A stretch of DNA of 64,000 nt from Candidatus Poriferihabitaceae bacterium. GTDB taxonomy: Bacteria; Pseudomonadota; Gammaproteobacteria; Arenicellales; Poriferihabitantaceae. This document shows, one piece after another, positions 2,258 to 52,582 of the stretch; within the stretch, counting starts at the first letter, position 1; every line of letters begins with the position of its first letter. Made by a program: the position numbers and the translations under genes. The notes beneath the pieces are model-generated. The model worked only from the letters and a program-made list of their open reading frames with translations. It was not told where the DNA came from and did no database searches. The stretch spans positions 1,554,773-1,618,772 of the forward strand of contig CBDBBV010000002.1 in assembly GCA_965203265.1 (NCBI GenBank), read 5' to 3'.

Positions 2258-2937
2258 CCCTTCCTCATCCTGACCGGCTGCAAGCGGCATGGCTGGAGTT
2301 GCAAGAAATTCATCGGGAATATCTTGCCGTTCATCAGGTAAAGATTCCCTCGGCAACCCATTATGCGGATACCAACAAGTCTCTCTGGCTGGCCGTCTTG
2401 TATCTCTATCAGGACAGAGAAGTACACAAAAACACAATGTCCGCCATTGCGAAACGAGATATACCGAACGCAGCCGCGGATCAACAAGTAAGACACCTCA
2501 AGCGGGATGGATGGAGCATTGGCGACAAGCCAGGGCTTCACAGGCTGAATCCATATAAACCATCACTCGCTTTTTTGAACGCCGAAGCACGCCGACGAAG
2601 CAGACTTACCGCCTCGGATTTCGAGGGGATAAAGGAGGCTTACGGAAAACGATGCGCGACATGCGGCGCCACAGAGGGAAGACCGGATCCGCGCTATGGC
2701 GATGAAATGGTCGCATTGCAACAAGGACACCAAAATCCACACAAGCGAGGGGACGATAGGGAAAACATCATTCCGCAGTGCCAGTTTTGTAACCGAGCCT
2801 ACAAGGATGATTATGTATTCGACAACAAGGGGCGCGTTCGTGCCGTGGCAAGCATTCGCCCGGTGGAAAGAGCCAATGAAAATGTGCAACAAAAAATTCT
2901 CGATTGGCTTGTCGAAAAATTCAAGGGAAAACCATAA
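2254..2937 (+). CDS. putative HNH / beta-beta-alpha-Me type II restriction endonuclease, cognate to the upstream methyltransferase
   Basis: The start overlaps the methylase stop by 4 nt (ATGA at 2254-2257). It has a Cys4 plus HNH-like signature (CATCG...GHQNPH...IIPQCQFCN). It shares the methylase's lower GC. Confidence 0.6.
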   Translation: MTLPHPDRLQAAWLELQEIHREYLAVHQVKIPSATHYADTNKSLWLAVLYLYQDREVHKNTMSAIAKRDIPNAAADQQVRHLKRDGWSIGDKPGLHRLNPYKPSLAFLNAEARRRSRLTASDFEGIKEAYGKRCATCGATEGRPDPRYGDEMVALQQGHQNPHKRGDDRENIIPQCQFCNRAYKDDYVFDNKGRVRAVASIRPVERANENVQQKILDWLVEKFKGKP

Positions 2938-3034
2938 ATCATAATCGGGAAGACGCGCCGTCTCCACCTCATTTCCATGGCCGGAATGAATCGTATTTTG
3001 CTATAATGCCCGGCCTCCATCCCCGAGCCCGCCC

Positions 3035-3778
3035 ATGCCCCGCCCAAGTGGTCGCGAAAACGACGAATTGCGACCGATCTCCATCATCCGCCACTACACG
3101 CGGCACGCCGAGGGCTCCGTGTTGATCAGCTTCGGCGATACTCGGGTGCTGTGCAACGCCAGCATCGAGGAGAAAGTGCCCGTGTTCTTGCGCAGCAAAA
3201 ACCTGCGCAAGCAAAAACACGGGTGGATTACCGCGGAGTACGGCATGTTGCCGCGCGCCACCAACGAGCGCAACGCACGCGAAGCCGCTCGGGGTCGGCA
3301 GAGTGGCCGCGTTCTGGAAATCCAGCGATTGATCGGGCGCGCCCTTCGCGCTGTGGTCGATCTGCGGCGGCTCGGCGAACGCACCATCGTGCTCGACTGC
3401 GATGTCATTCAAGCCGACGGGGGCACTCGCACCGCCGCGATTTCCGGCGCATTTGTGGCGCTGGTGGACGCGGTCAACTGGCTGCGCCATCAGGACTTGA
3501 TCGACGAAAATCCGGTGCATCGCGCGCTCGCCGCGATCTCGGTCGGCGTCTTTGCAGGCGAGGTTGTCACCGATCTCGACTACGCCGAGGACAACCGCGC
3601 GGACACCGACATGAACGTGGTCATGGACGATCACGGCGGCCTGATCGAAATTCAGGGCACTGCCGAGGCCGCACCGTTCGACAGAGACACCTTGAATCGC
3701 ATGCTCGACCATGCGCAAACCGGCATCGAGCAGATTCTGCGCGTGCAACGGCAGGCGTTGATGGAGGGCGCCGACTAG
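3035..3778 (+). CDS. rph: ribonuclease PH
   Basis: N-terminus [40 protein letters not shown] and full-length similarity to RNase PH. Confidence 0.95.
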
Positions 3779-29536: not shown

Positions 29537-29667
29537 TTATCCGTGTAACTATTTGTTTTTTATGGATTTATCCATATCGTGATGAAATTTTCGGCAAGCG
29601 GCACTTGTGCCGCCGAAACAATCCCGACACAACAAACCCGGCGGATTTATGCACAGAGTTATCCACA
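29537..29667 (+). promoter_or_regulatory. cluster of four same-orientation DnaA-box-like 9-mers upstream of priA
   Basis: TTATCCGTG 29537-29545, TTATCCATA 29568-29576, TTATGCACA 29647-29655 and TTATCCACA 29659-29667 (a perfect consensus), with an AT-rich stretch at 29525-29600. Confidence 0.4.
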
Positions 29668-29713
29668 GATTCTGTGTGTAACCCACGAGCCGCCAGCCCC
29701 TTCCGCCGAGCAA

Positions 29714-31924
29714 ATGCCCGCTGAGCGCGATCGCGTCGTTCAGGTCGCCGTGCCGGTTCCGCTACGGCGTCTGTTCGACTACCGCTGGGAGGCGGAACCG
29801 CTCCCTGCGGGCAGCCGGGTACGGGTGCCGTTCGGCGCCGGTGCGCGCGCTCGCACGACGGTCGGCATGGTGGTTTCCAACCATCCGGCGCAAGGCGGCC
29901 ACCGGCTGAAACACATCGCCGAGGCGCTGGACGCGGACAACCTGTTCGGCCAACGCCTGTTCGACTTGCTGATCTGGGCTGCGCGCTATTACCACCACCC
30001 CCCCGGCGAAGTCCTGCAAACCGCCCTGCCAGTCGCATTGCGCGGCGGCAAGGCGCTGGCCGACCCGACTCTGGGCAGATTCCTGCGTGCCGTCGATGCG
30101 GATCACGGCGCGGATTCGTTCAGCTGGGCGCCTGTGCAGCGCGAGATTTACCACTATCTCCTCGGCGCCGGCTGGGTTCATTGGGACACCGTGCGAAAAC
30201 AGTTTCCCAACGGCGCGATCCCGCTAAAACGGCTACAGGAAAAGGGCCTGATCGAAATCGCCCTGCGCTCCGCGCCCGAGGCCACATCCGCCCCCGCCTC
30301 CGCCGACATCGAACTGAGCGCCGAGCAGCAACGCGCGGTGGACGCGATTACCGGATGCACCGGCCGTTTCGCCTCATTCCTGCTGCACGGCGTAACCGGC
30401 AGCGGCAAAACCGAGGTGTATCTCGAGGCGGCGCAACACTGCATCGCCGCCGGTGCCCAAGTACTCATACTGGTGCCGGAAATCGCGCTCACGCCGCAGC
30501 TGGTGTTGCGAGTGCGGGAGCGGCTGGGCGACGGGGTATGCGTGCTGCACTCGGCGCTGTCCGATGAAAAACGCTACCGAGCTTGGTGGCTGGCGCGGGA
30601 AGGGCGCGTCGCCGCCGTGCTCGGCACCAGATCGGCGGTGTTCACGCCGCTCAAATCTCCGGGCCTGATTCTGGTGGACGAGGAGCACGATATTTCCTAC
30701 AAGCAGCAGGATGGTTTCCGCTACCACGCGCGCGATTTGGCGATCAAGCGCGCCAGTTTGGAGAACATTCCGGTGGTGCTGGGCTCGGCGACGCCCTCCA
30801 TGGAAACCCGCCACAACGCCAGCCGAGGCCGCCATCGGCTACTGGTTCTCGGTAAGCGCATCGGCACCGCCACGTTGCCGCGCATCGACTTCATCGACCT
30901 CAAAAAGCACCGCCCATTCGACGGCCTGTCCACGCCCCTGCTGCAAGCCATCAAACAGCGGCTGGCCAAGCGCGAGCAGTCCATCGTCTTCCTCAACCGG
31001 CGCGGATTCGCCCCCATCGCCCAGTGCCATCAGTGCGGCTGGCAGGCGACCTGCGAGCGCTGCGACGCGCGCCTGACCTACCACCGCGACGGCGAGAGAT
31101 TCCGCTGCCACCATTGCGGCCACACGCGCGCGGCGGAAATGAAATGCGGTGCCTGCGGTGAGCGGCTGTTCCTCGCCGGCGCGGGCACCCAGCGGCTGGA
31201 ACGGCGCCTGCGCCAAGCGTTTCCCGAGGCGCGCATCAGCCGGCTCGACCGCGACAAGGTTGCCACCCAAGCGAAACTGGAACTCGAACTCGAAGCCATT
31301 CGCCGCGGCAACACGGACATCATCGTCGGCACCCAGCTGATCGCCAAGGGACACGATTTTTCCCGAGTAACGCTGGTGGGCGTGGTCAATTCGGATCAGG
31401 GGCTGTACAGCGTCGATTTCCGCGCCCCGGAATATCTCTTCCAGCAACTGACTCAGGTGTCGGGTCGCGCCGGGCGGGCGGACGCGCCGGGGGAGGTGCT
31501 GATTCAGACCGCGCATCCGCACAACCCCACCCTGCAGCACATCTGCCGACACGACTTCGAGAGATTCGCCCGCCGCTGTCTTGCGGAGCGGCGCGCGGCC
31601 GATTATCCGCCGTTCAGCCACATCGCCCTGTGGCGGGCGGAATCCACCAAAGAAGCCGCCGCTCTGGAATTTCTCCGCTACGCCGCCGCCGTGGGGAAGC
31701 GCCTGCTGGCGCGGGGGGCGTTTCACCGGGTGCAGATTCTGGATGCGGTGATCTCGCCCATGGAAAGACTGGCGGGCCGATACCGCGCCCAACTGATGGT
31801 GCGCAGCAGCCATCGCGGGCAACTGCATCAACTACTGGCCGAATGGATCGAATCCATGGAAACCGACGCGAAATCCCGGCGGGCGCGGTGGTCGGTGGAC
31901 ATCGATCCCATGGAGATGTTTTGA
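29714..31924 (+). CDS. priA: primosomal replication restart helicase PriA
   Basis: Walker A GVTGSGKTEVY, DEEH box, Cys-rich zinc region (CHQCGW...CERCDARL...CHHCGH...CGACG) and a C-terminal RWSVDIDP. The start is chosen at the internal ATG 29714. Confidence 0.9.
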   Translation: MPAERDRVVQVAVPVPLRRLFDYRWEAEPLPAGSRVRVPFGAGARARTTVGMVVSNHPAQGGHRLKHIAEALDADNLFGQRLFDLLIWAARYYHHPPGEVLQTALPVALRGGKALADPTLGRFLRAVDADHGADSFSWAPVQREIYHYLLGAGWVHWDTVRKQFPNGAIPLKRLQEKGLIEIALRSAPEATSAPASADIELSAEQQRAVDAITGCTGRFASFLLHGVTGSGKTEVYLEAAQHCIAAGAQVLILVPEIALTPQLVLRVRERLGDGVCVLHSALSDEKRYRAWWLAREGRVAAVLGTRSAVFTPLKSPGLILVDEEHDISYKQQDGFRYHARDLAIKRASLENIPVVLGSATPSMETRHNASRGRHRLLVLGKRIGTATLPRIDFIDLKKHRPFDGLSTPLLQAIKQRLAKREQSIVFLNRRGFAPIAQCHQCGWQATCERCDARLTYHRDGERFRCHHCGHTRAAEMKCGACGERLFLAGAGTQRLERRLRQAFPEARISRLDRDKVATQAKLELELEAIRRGNTDIIVGTQLIAKGHDFSRVTLVGVVNSDQGLYSVDFRAPEYLFQQLTQVSGRAGRADAPGEVLIQTAHPHNPTLQHICRHDFERFARRCLAERRAADYPPFSHIALWRAESTKEAAALEFLRYAAAVGKRLLARGAFHRVQILDAVISPMERLAGRYRAQLMVRSSHRGQLHQLLAEWIESMETDAKSRRARWSVDIDPMEMF

Positions 31925-33140
31925 CTAGGGAATTATATACTTGATTCCACAAGCATTTGCGGGCAAACCGGAGCAACCCCCAGCTTAGCGCCCAAAGGAG
32001 CATTCCCGCCCCTTTTCTTGATATTCACAGCGGCGTTCCGGTCTCTGTCCATCACCAACCCGCATTGCGGGCAGGAATGGATGCGAACCGCCAGCGACTT
32101 TTTCACGATCGCGCGGCAGTTGGAACACATCTGCGAAGTCTGTTTCGGGTCAACCTTTATCACTGCCAAGCCAGCACTTTCAGCCTTGCAAGTCAGCCGT
32201 TCGACAAAAGCCGCCCACCCTACATCCGAAACCTGCCGCGACAACATCCCACGCGCCAAGCCCTTCACATTCAAATCCTCGACAATCAGCGTCTTGCCCT
32301 GCTCCACCAGTTTTTTCGCCGCCTGCCAGTGGAAATTTGCTCGCTGATTCCGCGCCCGCAAGTGCAGTCGTTCTACCACTTTCCGTTGCCGCTCCCTGTT
32401 CCCGCTCCTTCGCTGCTTTCTCGAAAGCGACTTTTGCGCTACGCGAAGCCGTTTCAATTCCCGCTGCAAGAAGCGTGGGTTCGGTATCTGCCAGCCAGTG
32501 TCCGTTGTCAGGAAGTGCGTCAACCCCACATCGATTCCCATCGTGTCGGAAACCGGAATGCGAGCAACATCCGGCAATTCGAGCGTCAGCTGCAGTTTCC
32601 AACCTTTCGCGTCCCGCACCAATCGAGCGTATTTCTGCCTTGCTTCGGCCGGTAGTGGGCGGTGGAAGTAGACGCGCAGGCGGCCATTCATCCCCTTGAA
32701 TGAGAGAAATCGCCAATTTCCGTTGCCGATTTCTATCCGATAGACTTTCTCCAGATCAATGCTCCGCCAGCGATTTCTCCCCTTGAATCTTGGGAAACCA
32801 CAACCTTCCTTGAATCCCTTGAAAAACGCCTTGAACGCCCTGTCCAGCCGCGTCAGCGCGCCCCGTCCTATCTGTGCGGACTGCTCACGCCACCCTTCGT
32901 CAAATGAGCGTATCTCGGTCAAACTTTTGCATTGGTCGTAGTACGAAACCCCCCGCCCAGTCCGCTTGTAGCAATCGATTCGTTCCTGCAACGCCGCGTT
33001 GTACAACCCGCGCGTCATGCCGAGCAGGACAAGCAGGCGCTTTTCCTGACCCTTTTGCGGCAGCACTCGGTATTCGTAGGTTCTGATCATCGTTTTATTT
33101 TACCCTGTTTATCTTGGGTGGAATTAAGCATGTAATTCCC
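31925..33140 (-). mobile_element. IS200/IS605-family element carrying tnpB only (no tnpA)
   Basis: tnpB is bounded by two near-identical same-sense imperfect palindromes: GGAATTA-N6-TAATTCC at 33120-33139 and GGAATTA-N6-TGATTCC at 31929-31948. The element sits in the priA-pyrC intergenic space. Exact ends were not determined. Confidence 0.65.
31933..33090 (-). CDS. tnpB: RNA-guided endonuclease TnpB (IS605 OrfB family)
   Basis: RuvC-like D/E/D residues (GIDVGL, VEDLNVKG, DRDRNAAVNI) and a zinc finger (CSNCRA...CPQCG); 385 aa. Confidence 0.9.
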   Translation of the reverse strand: MIRTYEYRVLPQKGQEKRLLVLLGMTRGLYNAALQERIDCYKRTGRGVSYYDQCKSLTEIRSFDEGWREQSAQIGRGALTRLDRAFKAFFKGFKEGCGFPRFKGRNRWRSIDLEKVYRIEIGNGNWRFLSFKGMNGRLRVYFHRPLPAEARQKYARLVRDAKGWKLQLTLELPDVARIPVSDTMGIDVGLTHFLTTDTGWQIPNPRFLQRELKRLRVAQKSLSRKQRRSGNRERQRKVVERLHLRARNQRANFHWQAAKKLVEQGKTLIVEDLNVKGLARGMLSRQVSDVGWAAFVERLTCKAESAGLAVIKVDPKQTSQMCSNCRAIVKKSLAVRIHSCPQCGLVMDRDRNAAVNIKKRGGNAPLGAKLGVAPVCPQMLVESSI

Positions 33141-33164
33141 TTTGGCTAAACTATAATACGCATA

Positions 33165-34217
33165 ATGAAAGAAACACTGACCATCACTCGCCCCGACGAT
33201 TGGCATGTACATCTGCGTCAGGACGAACTGTTAGCCCACGTGGTCGCGCACACCGCCGAGAGATTTGCCCGCGCCATGGTCATGCCGAACCTGTCGCCGC
33301 CCGTGGTCAGCACCGCTCGGGCGCTCGACTATCGCGCCGAGATTATGGCAGCCGCGCCGGTGGAAGCCGGATTCAACCCGCTGTTGTCTCTCTACTTGAC
33401 CGACAACACTCCCCCCCGCGAGGTGCGCGAGGCGGCGGCGCAGCCGGCCATCGTCGGCTTCAAACTCTATCCGGCCGGCGCCACCACCAACTCGGATTCC
33501 GGAGTGACCAGAATCAGCCGCATCATGCCGGTGCTGGAGGCCATGGCGGAATGGGGCTTGGTGCTGCAGGTGCATGGGGAAGTAACCGATCCGCAGGTGG
33601 ATGTGTTCGACCGCGAGGCGGTGTTCATCGAGCAGGTGCTCATCCCCCTGCAGCGGGAGCTGCCGAACCTGAAAATCATCCTTGAGCATGTAACCACCGA
33701 ACAGGGCGTGCAGTTCGTCAAGCAGGCCGGGGGCAATGTGGCGGCGACCATAACGCCGCACCACCTACTGTTCAATCGCAACGAGATTTTTCGCGGCGGG
33801 ATTCGCCCGCACGCCCATTGTCTGCCGGTGCTCAAGCGCGAACGGCATCGGCTGGCGCTGCTCGAGGCCGCCACTTGCGGCGATCCATCGTTCTTCCTCG
33901 GCACCGACAGCGCCCCCCATACCCGAAACGCCAAGGAAAGCGCGTGCGGCTGCGCCGGCATCTATTCCGCCCACGGCGCCATGGAACTGTATGCCGAGGT
34001 GTTCGAGGGGATGGGCGCGCTCGACAAACTCGAAGGGTTTGCCAGCCATTACGGCGCCGATTTCTACGGCCTTGCGCGCAATTCGGGGAAATTGACTCTG
34101 GAGAAAAATGCTTGGCGGGTGGCGCCCGCCTATCCGGCCGGGGGCGGCGATGAAATCGTTCCCCTGCGCGCCGGAGAGACGATCCCCTGGTCGATAGCGG
34201 CAGTCGATTACCGATAG
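33165..34217 (+). CDS. pyrC: dihydroorotase (class II, homodimeric type)
   Basis: [29 protein letters not shown] and GTDSAPH motifs. Confidence 0.9.
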
Positions 34218-36196
34218 CCCGACTGATAGGCGGCGTTCGGGTTCTCGAGGGTCTGCCGATCGATGGCCACATCCGCGTTTTGCCGTATGGTCTGGCGCAA
34301 CTGCCGGTACAAACCGTCGCCGTCGCGCGCCAGCAGCTGTTGCCGCAAGGCGGAACGTTCGGCCTCGTCAACGCTTTCCACATCCCCCGGTATCACAGAT
34401 TCGAGGGCGTACACCGCGTAGTCGCCATTGCTCAGAGAAACGCCGCCGTACACGGTCGCGCCGTCCGCCGGAGCGGCTTGAGCGAAAACCGCTTCACCCA
34501 GTTCCGCCAGTTCCGCCGGCACTTCATCGCGCGTTTCGGCGAGGGGTTGGGACTCGAGTTGCCGAGCGGCCAGCAGCCCGGCCCAATCGCCCTGCTCTCC
34601 CTGCTCTCCCTGCTCTCCCTGCTCTCCCTGCTCGGCATTCAAGTCGGCCACCAGCTGCTCGCCCAACTGCCGCGCCCGCTGGCTTGACTGTTGCAGTTTC
34701 AGGTTTTGCTCGATGGCGTCGCGGACGCTCTCGAACGGTTGCGGACGGGCTTCCTCATAGTCGGCCTTGTGGACCGCCACCAGATGGTCGAAGCCGAGTT
34801 CGATGGCGGCGCTGTTCAAGTCCTCCTCGAGCACATCCTCGCTGAACGCCGCGCGCCGCACCGCGGCTTCGTCGGCCACCCCCTCGCCGGCGTCTGCGGT
34901 AAACCAGTCGGTCTGCTTGATTTCCAGCCCGAGATCATCGGCGGCGACGGCGAGGCTGTCGGGGTTCTCGAATACCCGATTCTCGAATGTCTCGCCCAGT
35001 TCGGAGAACAGATTTTCGGCGTGGGCGCGCCGCACCGCCTCGGCGACTTCCTCGCGTACCTCATCCAGCGGCTGTTGCTGCTCCTCGCGCAATTCCGTCA
35101 ACTTGATGATGTGGTAGCCGAAACGGGTTTCGATGGGGCCGCGAATTTCGTCCTCGACCATGTCGAATACCGCTTCCTCGAAGGGCGCGACCATCTGCCC
35201 GCGAGTGACCACGCCGAGGTCTCCGCCGTTCTCCTTGGAGCCCGGATCGTCGGAATGGCGCTGCGCCAGATCGGCGAAATCCGCGTCCTCGACGCGAGAT
35301 TCGGCCAGCACCGTTTCCGCCTCGGCCCGCACTTCATCACGCTCGGCTTGTTCGGCGTCGGCGTCGACGGCGAACAGGATATGGCTTGCCCGGCGGGTTT
35401 CCGCCTGTTTGTAGCGCTCGCGGTTTTGCCTATAGGAATCCTGAATTTCAGATTCCGACGGCTCGACGCCGCGCGCCAGATCGTCCACGGCGAGCTCGAT
35501 GTAGTCCACCTTGATGCGAGCCGGCGACTGATAGCGAGACAGGTTGTCCTGATAATACTGCTCCACGGCGGCGTCATCGATGTCGATTTCCGCATCGAAA
35601 CGACTGGTCGGCACGATCACATAGTCGGTCGTGCGCGTTTGCGCTTGCAGTTGCAACAGCCGCTCCACCTCCCATTCGCTCACGAATGCCGAGTCGGTTA
35701 CCGCCGAGGACAGCAGTTCGATGACGGCGATTTGCCGCTCGGCGGTCTCATATGCCTGCGGCGTGAAACCGTTGCGCCGCAACAGATCCCGGTACAGCTC
35801 GGCATCGAATTGCCCGTCGCGGAAAAATATCTCGGTGGATTGGATGCGCTGGCGTAGCCGTTCATCGGACAGATGGTAATCGCGCTCGCGCACATACTGG
35901 CCCATGAGGCGGCTCGCGATCATCGATTCGACCACCCGATTGCGCATTTCGGCGCTCTCCAGTAGCGACGAATCGATGGCGCCGTCCGATTGCTGCAGTA
36001 GCGCCTGACGCTGCCGAGACAGCTCGTTCTGATAGGCGTACAGCGGGATTTTTTCGCCGTTGACCGTAGCCACGGGGATGTCGGCGGGATTGCCGAAATA
36101 GGACTGGATTCCCCACAGCGCGAACGGGATGGAGATGAGGATGACGACCACCCAGGCCAGTCCGCCGGTTGCCTGTTCGCGGATTTTGGTCAGCAT
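34208..36196 (-). CDS. ppiD: periplasmic chaperone / peptidyl-prolyl isomerase PpiD (SurA N-terminal domain plus parvulin domain)
   Basis: N-terminal TM anchor [25 protein letters not shown] and a parvulin core ([30 protein letters not shown]...GYHIIKL). The conserved position is downstream of hupB and the tRNAs. Confidence 0.85.
34591..34633. repeat. in-frame 9-bp tandem repeat (CCTGCTCTC, 4.8 copies) inside ppiD, encoding (EQG)n
   Basis: Read directly. The protein shows [16 protein letters not shown]. Confidence 0.9.
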
Positions 36197-43276: not shown

Positions 43277-43309
43277 TGACCGCGCCTCGCGCGCAAAATT
43301 GGGGTGAAC

Positions 43310-43386
43310 GATGGGACTCGAACCCACGACGGCCGGAATCACAATCCGGGGCTCTACCAACTGAGCTACGTTCACCATAATTTCAT
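43310..43386 (-). tRNA. tRNA-His (GTG)
   Basis: The reverse complement GGTGAACGTAGCTCAGTTGGTAGAGCCCCGGATTGTGATTCCGG...TCACCCCA has the extra 5' G typical of tRNA-His. Confidence 0.9.
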
Positions 43387-43430
43387 TCATCCGGCCTGCG
43401 CCCGCACATATAAGCTTTCATGGCGCGCCC

Positions 43431-43507
43431 GACAGGATTCGAACCTGTAACCTACGGCTTAGAAGGCCGTTGCTCTATCCGATTGGGCTACGGGCGCAAA
43501 GATTGAA
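43431..43507 (-). tRNA. tRNA-Arg (TCT)
   Basis: The reverse complement GCGCCCGTAGCCCAATCGGATAGAGCAACGGCCTTCTAAGCCGTAGGTTACAGGTTCGAATCCTGTCGGGCGCGCCA. Confidence 0.9.
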
Positions 43508-52100: not shown

Positions 52101-52582
52101 ATATTCAATTGACCGCTTCTAGTCCCAGAATTGTTGTCGTATATGCCCGTAAAATGATAATTCGTGCCGCCAACCGTGAAACTGTTGTTCGTCAACTTGG
52201 AGTCGCAGTCCGATTTAAGGTTGCAACCCAAAAGCTCTGTGTTCACCGTTCCCACCGTAAACGTCGCCGACCACACGGTGGTGGTCTGAGCGGAAGCGGG
52301 AACAGCCAGCAGGGAGAACACGCCCGCCAACAAGACGATGACAAGGCGGCGGATGGATGATTTCCGCCCAACTTTCGAGGAATGAACTTGGCGGAAAAAC
52401 GGCAGGCGTACAGAGCGGCTCGCCGAGTCGAATGTTAGCTTAGAAGGGGGGGGGGGGGGGGGGGGGGGGGGGATTATGTTCAGATCGGCATTCACATTCG
52501 CACCAGCGGCGAGAACGGCCGAGGCGGTGCGGGCGTGGGTGGCGGCAGTGGTGGATCGGATGATTCGGGTATGGATGTTCAT
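49163..52582 (-). CDS. autotransporter outer-membrane protein with Calx-beta and cadherin-like passenger repeats
   Basis: Strong SD (GGAGGAA, 7 nt, ATG at 52582). The hydrophobic signal segment is LVIVLLAGVFSLLAVPASA. The passenger has two Calx-beta-like and two cadherin-like beta-sandwich repeats. The C-terminal beta-barrel of about 300 aa has alternating aromatic residues and ends in ...LLKGEARF. Confidence 0.8.
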   Translation of the reverse strand: MNIHTRIIRSTTAATHARTASAVLAAGANVNADLNIIPPPPPPPPPSKLTFDSASRSVRLPFFRQVHSSKVGRKSSIRRLVIVLLAGVFSLLAVPASAQTTTVWSATFTVGTVNTELLGCNLKSDCDSKLTNNSFTVGGTNYHFTGIYDNNSGTRSGQLNILINALPNTALKALKFCVGSTEFSLSGAAGIFIAWPNANLPWATGNTISLSIGSSCPTATTPTVNLSAAPNPVPEGSSVTITATLSAALTSNVRIPLTITRGSAEAADIGSLAAITISSGQTSATGSLSTNQDTDEQDETLTVALGTLPSSVTAGTDNSVAITITDDDKPAPTDLTALTAQRATSSAGPFTALALNPATFSHTTTAYSASVTNAVTHLILTPTAAQSGATIRVGKSGNLNSVASGVDSSAIPLSVGANPILVEVTASGGAKNTYTVSITRAAPSGSGQSDNADLSALTAKSSTDGSTFTTLALTPSFSASTTAYRAPVGNEVTHAILTPTTAHNAASIKVGKSGSLTAVNSGSDSSAISLAEGGNAIVVEVTAEDGSTTNYRVSITRAAIPTTLTLAASPTDIPEGRESVVTATLNRPAPSGGSVVTLTIDASGNTAATEGVDYSLTTKTFTIAAGRHSETVTLTTIADEVDDDGETITISATSTNPSLRTERALVLTIVSQIQSERLHETALPEVARAVASRVTGAISTRVGRALNGSGSGGVSASLGGQSSLAGVLQTHAPGLVNDNIPLRDLLDGSDFVLPFHTREEGGGLRKTSLWGSGEYRNLSGENDGVDFDGSLYGAQIGVDHKVRENLLAGVALSWSEGELEYEDTSESGGASGVSKGDYEIDLLAIHPYFGWRSGQRHWWATAGYGTGEVEITPQDGESSSNDVTLQSVSLGGSGLLWSRDDASVRLKGEIARTDLEVEKTAQVAAMTVETTLIRFAAEASSSRHLSGGGHLSPSISLGLRHDGGDGVDGNTSTGAEFHGSVRYANPKTGWNAETSAHTLLGRSDYEEWGIQASLRLSPSAGGHGLSFEMSPGYGNHGGDGNTGQIWSNGLRETTPTTHDPSGRLEMNLGYGLSTPGERDGLLTPWSGLTLQDNGKLYRIGLDWSSGGQFTLRLHGERREHGNERADADHAILLKGEARF
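52446..52472. repeat. 27-nt homopolymer (G27 on plus, C27 in the coding sense) inside the autotransporter 5' coding region
   Basis: Counted directly. The run of G spans 52446-52472 and encodes nine consecutive prolines at codons 37-45. Confidence 0.95.

Follow-up and report, generated by a model that had tools for sequence, protein, structure and literature searches.

The window analyzed here is a stretch of 64 kb in which a short mobile element is inserted between priA, which ends at position 31924, and pyrC, which begins at position 33165. The main features of this locus are the following.

31928-33140, minus strand: whole mobile element, 1213 bp (GGGAATTA...TAATTCCC), delimited by sister-copy homology, repeats and duplication
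31933-33090, minus strand: tnpB, encoding 385 aa, intact, with D187/E271/D350 and C321xxC324...C340xxC343
31928-31950, minus strand: right-end terminal inverted repeat, reading GGGAATTATATACTTGATTCCAC on the plus strand and containing the palindrome at 31929-31948
33118-33140, minus strand: left-end terminal inverted repeat, reading GGGAATTACATGCTTAATTCCAC in the tnpB sense and containing the palindrome at 33120-33139
31920-31927, no strand: target-site duplication on the priA side, TTTGACTA, including the priA stop codon TGA (31922-31924)
33141-33148, no strand: target-site duplication on the pyrC side, TTTGGCTA; it also flanks the orthologous insertion L150

The limits of the element were set by homology with the sister copy L151 (positions 2448-3663), and the copies L001 and L152 share the same last base. 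This end is separated from the priA stop codon by 3 nt, within the 5 nt that the initial annotation had allowed. The G+C content of the element is 55%, compared with 61% for the window. Between the repeats, tnpB is the sole ORF with a family match, and no transposase gene is present within the element, between priA and pyrC, or elsewhere in the 64-kb window; the earlier remark that no tnpA adjoins tnpB is thus correct. A scan of positions 31700-33400 for promoter and terminator consensus sequences gave no match.

The two palindromes from which the element had originally been recognized, GGAATTATATACTTGATTCC at 31929-31948 and GGAATTAAGCATGTAATTCC at 33120-33139, are indeed present, and the right one does overlap the tnpB stop codon (TAA, 31935-31933). 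When both strands of the 64 kb were scanned allowing up to two mismatches, five matches were obtained, four of them from these two sites and the fifth from a two-mismatch site within tnpB (32332-32351); the chance expectation is 0.36 matches, and none of 100 shuffles reached five. In the window, each palindrome is embedded in a longer terminal inverted repeat of 23 nt, and the two repeats are identical at 20 of 23 positions (23/26 in L152). The repeats at the tips align better inverted than direct, and from one subfamily to another the two ends vary in concert. In sister copies whose TnpB proteins are 92-94% identical, the right-end palindrome is weakened (L151) or absent (L001 and L152). The 8-bp sequences that flank the repeats, 31920-31927 and 33141-33148, match at seven positions, in the same register as in L001, L152, L036 and L008. 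The duplication is perfect in L001 (AATGTAAC), L152 (AATTTTTT) and L036 (AAAGTAGT), the chance of an 8/8 match at a fixed register being 1.5e-5; it is 7/8 in L008, as it is in the window and in L150, and no matching duplication was found at the flanks of three copies, L151, L153 and L147. The empty priA-pyrC site can be reconstructed as ...GTATTATAGTT|TAGTCAAAACATCTCC.

The element is mobile. The L151 copy is inserted between the genes for tRNA-Arg and tRNA-His, a site that is empty in the window (43376-43420); the filled and empty sites overlap by only 2 nt, and no single deletion restores an intact 8-bp duplication. Conversely, in the related sequence L274 priA adjoins pyrC without tnpB, which provides the empty junction that had been proposed as a check, and L150 carries the same priA-pyrC insertion as the window. 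Furthermore, L152 and L153, which occupy different loci, do not differ in their coding sequences, and one contig of 2.26 Mb carries at least five paralogues. The sequence is not an ancestral immobile gene, the finding that would have spoken against the initial annotation. Eleven copies from two phyla contain tnpB alone between the repeats, and the cousins L005, L008, L009 and L036, from another phylum and with 38-40% identity, are likewise tnpB-only and have the same kind of ends. As for near-identical copies, the closest match had 63% identity in the genome-contig scan and 41% in the metagenome-contig scan. An IS630 transposase gene located between the left repeat and tnpB of L008 was considered as the element's own enzyme and rejected: comparison with L036 reveals an independent IS630 element nested in this copy, bounded by repeats of its own (GTAYAGCGT) and by a TA duplication within a CTAG.

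The assignment of the protein does not depend on the ends. The ORF has the 385 codons, RuvC D-E-D triad and zinc finger first described for it, and HTH_OrfB_IS605 (PF12323), OrfB_IS605 (PF01385) and Cas12f1-like_TNB (PF07282) all score above their Pfam cut-offs, in the HTH, OrfB_IS605, zinc-ribbon order of TnpB proteins. The NCBIfam model NF040570 (guided_TnpB) gives 257.9 bits against a cut-off of 100. ISDra2 TnpB matches at 1e-39, and alignment to 8bf8/8exa places its D191, E278 and D361 on D187, E271 and D350 of the window protein, so that the triad is free of the substitutions that would have counted against it; likeness to LaTranC (56 bits) is confined to the RuvC half. The protein is an intact and probably active RNA-guided nuclease, as the intact ORF had suggested. 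The gene is under purifying selection, with dN/dS values of 0.11-0.22 and all six of six copies intact. Between the window and L150, there are no synonymous changes in the last 40 codons of tnpB, as against 52.7 elsewhere in the gene.

The initial annotation had taken the ends for those of an IS200/IS605 element served by a Y1 transposase in trans; the 23-nt inverted repeats, the 8-bp duplication and the resemblance of the ends to those of IS1595 elements speak against this. IS1595 elements encode a DDE transposase with an N-terminal zinc ribbon, and are the prokaryotic relatives of eukaryotic Merlin. Their ends start with GG and their insertion generates an 8-bp target duplication (PMC8101967). 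A scan with GGGAATTATATACNTRAC returned more than 120 loci, whose IS1595-type ends, with terminal repeats that we term GGGAATTATATACTTGA-type, come from viral contigs and not from the host of the window. From 150 ends on these viral contigs we derived the 22-nt consensus GGGAATTATATACTTGACTCCC, which agrees with the right repeat of the window at 20 of 22 positions and with the left repeat at 17 of 22. Perfect 8-bp duplications flank 21 of the 30 testable inverted pairs of consensus-type ends. The ends are linked to IS1595 transposases, since 63 of 120 loci with such ends encode a protein of about 305 aa that scores 201-209 bits with the IS1595 transposase model NF033547 (cut-off 75). Over their first 13 bases, the ends of the tnpB elements are nearly identical to those of elements encoding an IS1595 transposase, and both have an 8-bp AT-rich duplication. 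The same scan also contained miniature elements (MITEs) of 300-480 bp with IS1595-type ends.

Like IS1595 elements, the window element has matching repeats that start with GG, an 8-bp duplication and AT-rich targets, and the family includes passenger-carrying as well as miniature non-autonomous forms. It differs in lacking a DDE_Tnp_IS1595 transposase of its own, and in that its passenger is an RNA-guided nuclease whose predicted scaffold ends in the repeat. Because there is no transposase ORF between the repeats, we file it as a non-autonomous derivative and not as an autonomous member of the family. The best fit is presumably the ISNwi1-like subgroup, for which ISfinder gives ends of the type 'ggnnatTAT', 8-bp repeats and occasional passenger genes. 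tblastn revealed no IS1595 transposase in the 64 kb of the window, nor at any of the TnpB loci examined, and none of the loci examined contained a transposase gene and tnpB between one repeat pair; we therefore assume a trans-acting IS1595 partner in the host. A transposase of this family, encoded elsewhere in the genome, would bind both 23-nt repeats and move the element, cutting AT-rich targets with an 8-bp stagger. At this locus the target would have been the tight priA-pyrC junction, which would explain why the duplicated sequence contains the priA stop codon. Taken together, 31928-33140 is very likely a non-autonomous insertion sequence with IS1595-family ends whose sole cargo is tnpB with an embedded guide RNA. 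No paper describing an IS1595 element with a TnpB cargo was found in the searchable literature.

The guide RNA is predicted to be encoded by the 3' end of tnpB and the right end of the element, as follows.

31994-32015, minus strand: predicted omega-RNA hairpin A, AAAGGGGCG-GGAA-TGCTCCTTT, from covariation in alignment A1
31961-31993, minus strand: predicted omega-RNA stem B, a two-part helix within the tnpB coding region
31937-31956, minus strand: predicted omega-RNA stem C, ATGCTTG-TGGAAT-CAAGTAT, with its 3' arm in the right inverted repeat
31928-31933, minus strand: predicted pseudoknot strand, ATTCCC, the last bases of scaffold and element, directly 5' of the guide
31908-31927, minus strand: predicted guide, TAGTCAAAACATCTCCATGG, placed by its position directly 3' of the scaffold

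Once transcribed, the last ~90 nt of the tnpB coding region would fold as hairpin A, stem B and stem C. In a small covariation sample (10 sequences from 5 lineages), helices A and B were together 94% paired with seven compensatory pairs, and none of 500 shuffles reached this covariation; within stem B, the outer helix was 100% paired, with three of its five pairs changed on both sides, and the inner helix was 91% paired. Stem C is based on minimum-energy folds of all copies, and its arms change together: TGCTTG/CAAGTA in the window corresponds to TACATG/CATGTA in L001 and L152, and L147 and L149 have a longer helix. The GGGAAT at the apex of hairpin A (32002-32007) is the complement of the six bases with which the element ends, and five sequence types preserve this relation. 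When the putative pseudoknot is scored in a single fixed register, 91% of its cells are paired and three of five pairs are compensatory, a value reached by one of 500 shuffles. These covarying helices and the pseudoknot sustain the proposal, already made in the initial annotation, that the scaffold lies largely within the 3' coding region of tnpB. A search of positions 31000-34000 against Rfam matched no family at E <= 1.

The right inverted repeat is thus the predicted 3' end of the guide-RNA scaffold. Since pairing of its final six bases with the hairpin A apex would create a pseudoknot adjoining the guide, the repeat bound by the transposase would double as the 3' end of the omega-RNA, and the element may be a compact case in which one sequence of 22-23 nt serves as DDE-transposase site and as the guide-adjacent omega-RNA end. 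The flanking DNA, consisting of the duplication and the priA 3' end read antisense, would become the guide. The predicted guide runs antisense to the end of priA, covering its final codons and stop, in the orientation anticipated earlier, and it begins with the 8 nt of the target duplication, as would be the case for each guide. The flanks gave no consistent target-adjacent motif: the pentanucleotides that precede the duplication or insertion point (TAGTT, TGATG, CGGTC, AACTG, AATTG and GAATG) have only a T at -2 in common, at six of six sites. TnpB together with its RNA would cut element-free sites, and recombination with an occupied copy would then restore the element. A role in retention or homing has been shown for IS605-type TnpB, and TnpB may play the same role here. 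The predicted architecture resembles that of the ISDra2 omega-RNA, which has a pseudoknot (PMC10097598). In both cases the 3' part of the gene is shared with the omega-RNA and the pseudoknot adjoins the guide, but the window element has a shorter scaffold, which terminates just 5 nt past the stop codon. On the practical side, the system combines a nuclease of 385 aa with a scaffold of roughly 90 nt.

The reading of the element as a solo tnpB of the IS1341 type, moved as single-stranded DNA by a Y1 TnpA acting in trans on subterminal hairpins, does have points in its favor. The protein is closest to the IS200/IS605-type TnpB models (NF038281, 211 bits, below the cut-off of 425), palindromes lie near both ends, and the distant relatives L027, L019, L103 and L111 adjoin real Y1 tnpA genes. 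With the IS1341 group of IS200/IS605, for example ISDra2, the window TnpB shares the protein family, the domain order, the RuvC triad and the zinc finger. However, elements of the IS200/IS605 family have neither terminal inverted repeats nor a target duplication (PMC13565253, PMC3119063), and the window element has inverted repeats at its very tips, 8-bp duplications exist, and its ends match those of IS1595. Nor were the other characteristics of that family found, namely a fixed 4-5-nt target motif and hairpins conserved at both ends: the nucleotides 5' of the left end vary among copies (CCAAA, TGAAT, GTAAC, CAAAG), so that there is no IS605-style target motif, and the right palindrome is lost or weakened in the sister copies named above. 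Finally, the element contains no Y1 TnpA, tblastn with four real Y1 sequences gave only E > 1 across the 64-kb window, and true Y1 tnpA genes adjoin only the more distant TnpB relatives. We therefore regard this reading as extremely unlikely. The case also illustrates, for genome annotation, that terminal palindromes around a solo tnpB are not sufficient grounds for assigning it to IS200/IS605.

If the ends are of the IS1595 type, it could still be asked whether an IS1595 transposase is the enzyme that moves them. Because every copy seen carries tnpB alone, we considered a TnpB-dependent route, or another enzyme that shares the end features. The tnpB-only form is indeed found in all eleven copies and persists down to 38% protein identity, without any linked transposase, the IS630 gene of L008 being a nested insertion. 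On the other hand, the first 13 bases are nearly the same as in the IS1595-encoding elements, the 8-bp AT-rich duplication is the same, non-autonomous derivatives that use the ends of their family are ordinary, as the MITEs in our scan exemplify, and we know of no mechanism by which TnpB alone would make insertions bounded by inverted repeats at unrelated sites; a different mover thus seems unlikely. It is also conceivable that the priA-pyrC copy has been domesticated by its host, perhaps to serve in RNA-guided regulation or protection of the priA-pyrC junction. This would fit the antisense orientation of the guide to the priA 3' end and the presence of the same insertion in L150, a lineage about 6% diverged in which the ORF is intact and dN/dS relative to the window is 0.22. 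Yet the catalytic residues are intact, unlike those of nuclease-dead domesticated TnpB relatives, and the repeats and the duplication are still there. Moreover, sister copies at unrelated loci are equally conserved and are polymorphic between strains, which indicates that conservation of tnpB is a property of the family and not of the priA-pyrC locus. Domestication therefore appears very improbable, and we retain the view that the locus holds a non-autonomous IS1595-type element.

Prokaryotic TnpB has been seen mainly with transposases of the Y1 and serine types, whose excision is scarless, associations with DDE transposons being described as rare (PMC13565253). TnpB has been placed in DDE transposons with symmetrical ends, namely IS630, ISL2 and IS1031, in the summary that this source gives of earlier work (Altae-Tran et al. 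2023, PMC10691335, summarised in PMC13565253). As in these cases, the window TnpB lies inside inverted-repeat ends and its solo copies presumably moved in trans; in both, the flanking DNA would supply the guide because the 3' end of TnpB is near the transposon end. The window element differs in its family, IS1595, in its duplication of 8 bp, not TA, and in that all copies seen are solo. Eukaryotic Fanzor1 is found in transposons that have inverted repeats at their ends and are flanked by target duplications. The window family makes it possible to test how the guide RNA comes to fit a different transposon end, what use TnpB has to a transposon if, as assumed, excision leaves a break behind, and where the target-adjacent motif lies relative to the duplication.

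There is no CRISPR array at the locus or in the 64-kb window. In the relatives L002, L144-L146 and L148 (58-63% identity), the repeat ends are replaced by mini CRISPR arrays, with repeats of 37 nt and spacers of 28-31 nt, that start about 30 nt past the stop codon. The 3' end of the array repeat keeps complementarity to the apex of hairpin A; for these relatives we relied on whole-sequence folds, as RNAduplex of anti-repeat against repeat gave no clean answer. These relatives are like TranC and small type V-U systems, in which nucleases of TnpB size lie by short CRISPR arrays without cas1 or cas2, whereas the window copy lacks an array and has one fixed guide position at the transposon end. 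TranC lineages are described as descending from IS605 or IS607 TnpBs (PMC13565253) and not from a clade that sits on DDE-transposon ends. A scenario that we offer tentatively, and consider somewhat less probable than not, is that TnpB and its omega-RNA left an ancestral IS605-type (Y1) transposon to be the only cargo of IS1595-type ends, that the repeat became the pseudoknot strand, and that multiplication of this repeat-derived RNA end afterwards gave rise, possibly twice, to the CRISPR-like arrays of the L002 and L148 types. If true, this would be an undescribed route from the end of a DDE transposon to a CRISPR repeat. Since close relatives have swapped the transposon end for arrays, the clade spans both sides of the transition from transposon to CRISPR, and it samples this transition at 58-72% protein identity.

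The element at 31928..33140 (minus strand, 1213 bp) lies between priA and pyrC. Its parts and neighbours are as follows.

29579..31924, priA, one neighbour of tnpB, with its TGA stop codon at 31922-31924
31933..33090, minus strand, tnpB open reading frame, 385 aa
33165, start of pyrC, the other neighbour of tnpB
33140..33118, left tip of the element, in tnpB sense: GGGAATTACATGCTTAATTCCAC
31928-31950, right tip, as reverse complement: GGGAATTATATACTTGATTCCAC
31920-31927, outer flank on the priA side: TTTGACTA
33141-33148, outer flank on the pyrC side: TTTGGCTA

The initial annotation described the product as a TnpB with an intact RuvC triad and zinc finger, and this was borne out. Pfam finds three TnpB domains in it, the NCBIfam model guided_TnpB scores 257.9 bits (cut-off 100), and alignment with ISDra2 TnpB (PDB 8bf8/8exa, E = 2e-39) places D187, E271 and D350 on the catalytic residues D191, E278 and D361, with both CxxC pairs of the zinc finger intact. 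The palindromes reported at 33120-33139 and 31929-31948 are exactly at these positions, the right-hand one overlaps the tnpB stop codon, and the right end is indeed close to priA, because the element terminates 3 nt past the priA stop. Four of the five palindrome matches in the window (at most 2 mismatches; 0.36 expected by chance) fall at the two sites, the fifth being a 2-mismatch site within tnpB (32332-32351). The tips themselves, identical at 20 of 23 positions, are terminal inverted repeats, and each palindrome is an internal property of one repeat. Immediately outside the repeats, TTTGACTA and TTTGGCTA are identical at 7 of 8 positions.

Further copies, for which a search had been proposed, were obtained via protein clusters. 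The L001 copy (TnpB 94% identical), inserted between genes for a methyltransferase and an outer-membrane factor, has AATGTAAC on either side, and the L152 copy, whose repeats are identical at 23 of 26 positions, has AATTTTTT on either side. L150 is the same priA-pyrC insertion with the same flanks in a strain that is about 6% diverged; no matching duplication was found at the copies L153, L151 and L147. The right-end palindrome is absent in L001 and L152 and weakened in L151. Between subfamilies the left and right ends have changed together, as expected if one protein binds both. IS200/IS605 elements, to which the initial annotation assigned the locus, lack inverted repeats as well as duplications (PMC13565253, PMC3119063). 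Because both are present here, and because the bases 5' of the left end differ among copies without conservation, that assignment fails on the defining features of the family and we reject it.

In L001 (4150-4180), an in-frame ATG comes from the element's own right end (ATG TAT ATA ATT CCC) and is joined to the duplicated start region of the outer-membrane-factor gene that lies downstream. Originally, the start of this gene overlapped the stop codon of the gene before it.

To which family, then, do the ends belong? The cousins L005, L008, L009 and L036, from Thermodesulfobacteriota genomes (TnpB 38-40% identity), share the layout of the window element and have repeats GGGACTTATATACATAACTAGAC; the duplication is AAAGTAGT in L036 (8/8) and CAGACGAT/CGGACGAT in L008 (7/8). 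Since the 8-bp duplication and the GG... ends resembled IS1595, a viral contig collection was scanned with GGGAATTATATACNTRAC, which returned more than 120 matching loci. The consensus of 150 ends from these loci is GGGAATTATATACTTGACTCCC, perfect 8-bp duplications flank 21 of the 30 testable inverted pairs (31 pairs in all, spaced 0.3-3.5 kb), and 63 of 120 loci encode a protein of about 305 aa whose match to the NCBIfam model for IS1595 transposases reaches 201-209 bits (cut-off 75). Ends of this type are thus linked to IS1595 transposases. The window element matches the consensus at 20 of 22 positions on the right and 17 of 22 on the left, which again contradicts the family named in the initial annotation; all TnpB-element ends examined match at 14-20 of 22, the first 13 bases being nearly invariant. 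Duplications in the reference set favour A or T at positions 2, 3, 6 and 7, a preference that AATGTAAC, AATTTTTT and AAAGTAGT fit fully and TAGTCAAA at three of the four positions. Within the 64-kb window, neither an IS1595 transposase nor a Y1 transposase was found. Taken together with the IS1595-type ends, this makes it highly probable that the element is a non-autonomous IS1595 derivative with tnpB as its sole cargo.

The viral elements (IMG/VR, L154-L273) form a large family with the common end GGGAATTATATACTTGACTCCC and perfect 8-bp AT-rich duplications. Longer members often carry putative DNA methyltransferase-like passengers, judged from sequences read by eye, and the shortest are miniature forms of 300-480 bp. 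Examples are:

L196 7892-9985
L215 2713-4507
L203 5962-9470
L173 7127-7602

The cousin L008 has an IS630-family transposase gene between its left repeat and tnpB, an arrangement that at first sight looks like an "autonomous" unit of transposase and tnpB. When L036 is set beside it, this proves to be a separate, canonical IS630 element (L008 2725-3972; 378-aa transposase, NF033545, 227 bits) nested in the left end, with repeats of its own (GTAYAGCGT) and a TA duplication within CTAG, and its enzyme was therefore rejected as the element's own transposase.

The elements are mobile. The L151 copy is inserted into the 45-nt spacer that separates tRNA-Arg(TCT) from tRNA-His(GTG), inside a Pro-Arg-His-Lys-Leu tRNA gene cluster, and the same cluster in the window is empty at 43376-43420 (between tRNA-His, 43300-43375, and tRNA-Arg, 43421-43497). 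Filled and empty sites overlap by only 2 nt (AA), as against an 8-bp duplication, and no single later deletion was found that would explain this. L152 and L153 lie at unrelated loci and do not differ in coding sequence, and one 2.26-Mb contig carries at least five paralogues. The comparison with an empty priA-pyrC junction that the initial annotation proposed was made with L274: this relative (PyrC 79% identical) keeps the order nudix-priA-pyrC-ppiD-hupB-lon without tnpB, and its junction ...GGAAATGTTTTAA CTATAATACGGCC ATG resembles the window with the element and one duplication copy removed. The G+C content is 55% in the element and 61% in the window. The gene is also under selection, every ORF being intact in six copies, with dN/dS of 0.11-0.22. 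Between the window and L150 there are 0 synonymous changes in the last 40 codons and 52.7 in the other 345, a pattern expected if an RNA overlaps the gene end.

For the same pair, dS is 0.22 for tnpB (31933-33090) and 0.12 for the adjacent pyrC (33165-34217), which may be a sign that element copies undergo gene conversion with one another or that the mutation regime differs. Native DNA just beyond the element contains a perfect TATAAT (33152-33157), 7 nt upstream of the pyrC ATG (33165), for which no -35 match was found; the uninterrupted L274 junction has the same TATAAT. Severed from priA by the insertion, pyrC might have a leaderless or near-leaderless transcript. In the 109-nt priA-pyrC spacer of L274 (3392-3500), the last ~60 nt of priA recur in degenerate form (...ATGGAAATGTTTTAA twice).

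An omega-RNA of the window element is well supported as a prediction from aligned 3' ends of ten relatives, a small sample of five lineages. Its local helices are:

31994-32015, hairpin A
31961-31993, stem B
31937-31956, stem C

The proportion of paired cells in hairpin A and stem B is 94% and falls to 37-56% with partners slid; seven pairs have changed on both sides, and the observed covariation was reached in 0 of 500 shuffles. The arms of stem C covary between subfamilies (TGCTTG/CAAGTA, TACATG/CATGTA, and a longer helix in the related copies L147 and L149). In every lineage the bases that immediately precede the guide are complementary to the apex of hairpin A, in sequences that differ by lineage (GGGAAT:ATTCCC; GGAATCG:TGATTCC; GGGATCG:TGATTCC; GGTGG:CCACC; GGGTG:CACCT). 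In one fixed register, this pseudoknot has 91% of cells paired and three of five pairs compensatory, equalled in 1 of 500 shuffles. It resembles the long-range pseudoknot adjoining the guide in the structure of ISDra2, a feature conserved in Cas12 guide RNAs (PMC10097598). Judging from the covarying helices, all but the last 5 nt of the scaffold would lie within tnpB, in agreement with the proposed location in its 3' coding region, and the final 22 nt of the predicted scaffold are the IS1595-type repeat. The predicted guide, TAGTCAAAACATCTCC..., would consist of the duplication and then the last priA codons in antisense, the reading into priA being as had been anticipated. As regards a target-adjacent motif, the only regularity seen in the upstream flanks is a T two bases before the duplication or insertion point (6/6 sites; frequency 0.27 in the reference ends).

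An IS1595 transposase encoded elsewhere in the genome would move the element, and TnpB would load an RNA processed from its own transcript and cut site copies lacking the element, after which recombination would put it back. Such a site-restoring role has been shown for IS605-type TnpB. TnpB within DDE transposons with symmetrical ends is known and rare in prokaryotes, with cases in IS630, ISL2 and IS1031, and solo copies there are presumed to be mobilised in trans (PMC10691335, PMC13565253). Among the papers searched, none was found that links TnpB with IS1595. In a simple neighbour-joining tree, built without support values, TnpBs adjoining Y1 tnpA genes (e.g., L027) fall outside the clade with inverted-repeat ends, which suggests that the ends shifted from IS605-type to IS1595-type.

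Two lineages inside that clade, as placed by the same simple tree, have no repeat ends and carry short CRISPR arrays instead. The arrays begin about 30 nt past the stop codon of tnpB genes whose products share 58-63% identity with the window protein, and contain at least 5-6 repeats of 37 nt with spacers of 28-31 nt:

L002 5180-5482
L144 1405-1772
L145 1387-1754
L146 1358-1723
L148 4179-4479

The first four share the repeat GGTGGGAAAGCATTTGGTTTTGAGTGCATGTCCACCC, with three different spacer sets at one locus. The L148 repeat is GTTGGCGGTTTAGGCGTTTTGCGGGGGTAATTCACCT; its 3' end (TAATTCACCT) is still similar to the transposon tip (TAATTCCC), and L148 TnpB is 72% identical to that of L147, whose ends are inverted repeats. 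The repeat ends retain the pseudoknot complementarity, and no cas1 or cas2 was found among the called neighbours. As in TranC and type V-U systems, this looks like a transposon-to-CRISPR transition, made once or twice and in this case from a clade carried on DDE-transposon ends.

Two further tracts in the window may be mentioned. An unbroken run of 27 G (52446-52472) may stem from an assembly error or be prone to slippage. Within the ppiD-like gene (minus strand), a perfect 9-bp tandem repeat (34590-34633; 4.9 copies of CCCTGCTCT) encodes a run of GEQ repeats, whose copy number may vary between strains, because the L150 orthologue is 12 aa shorter.
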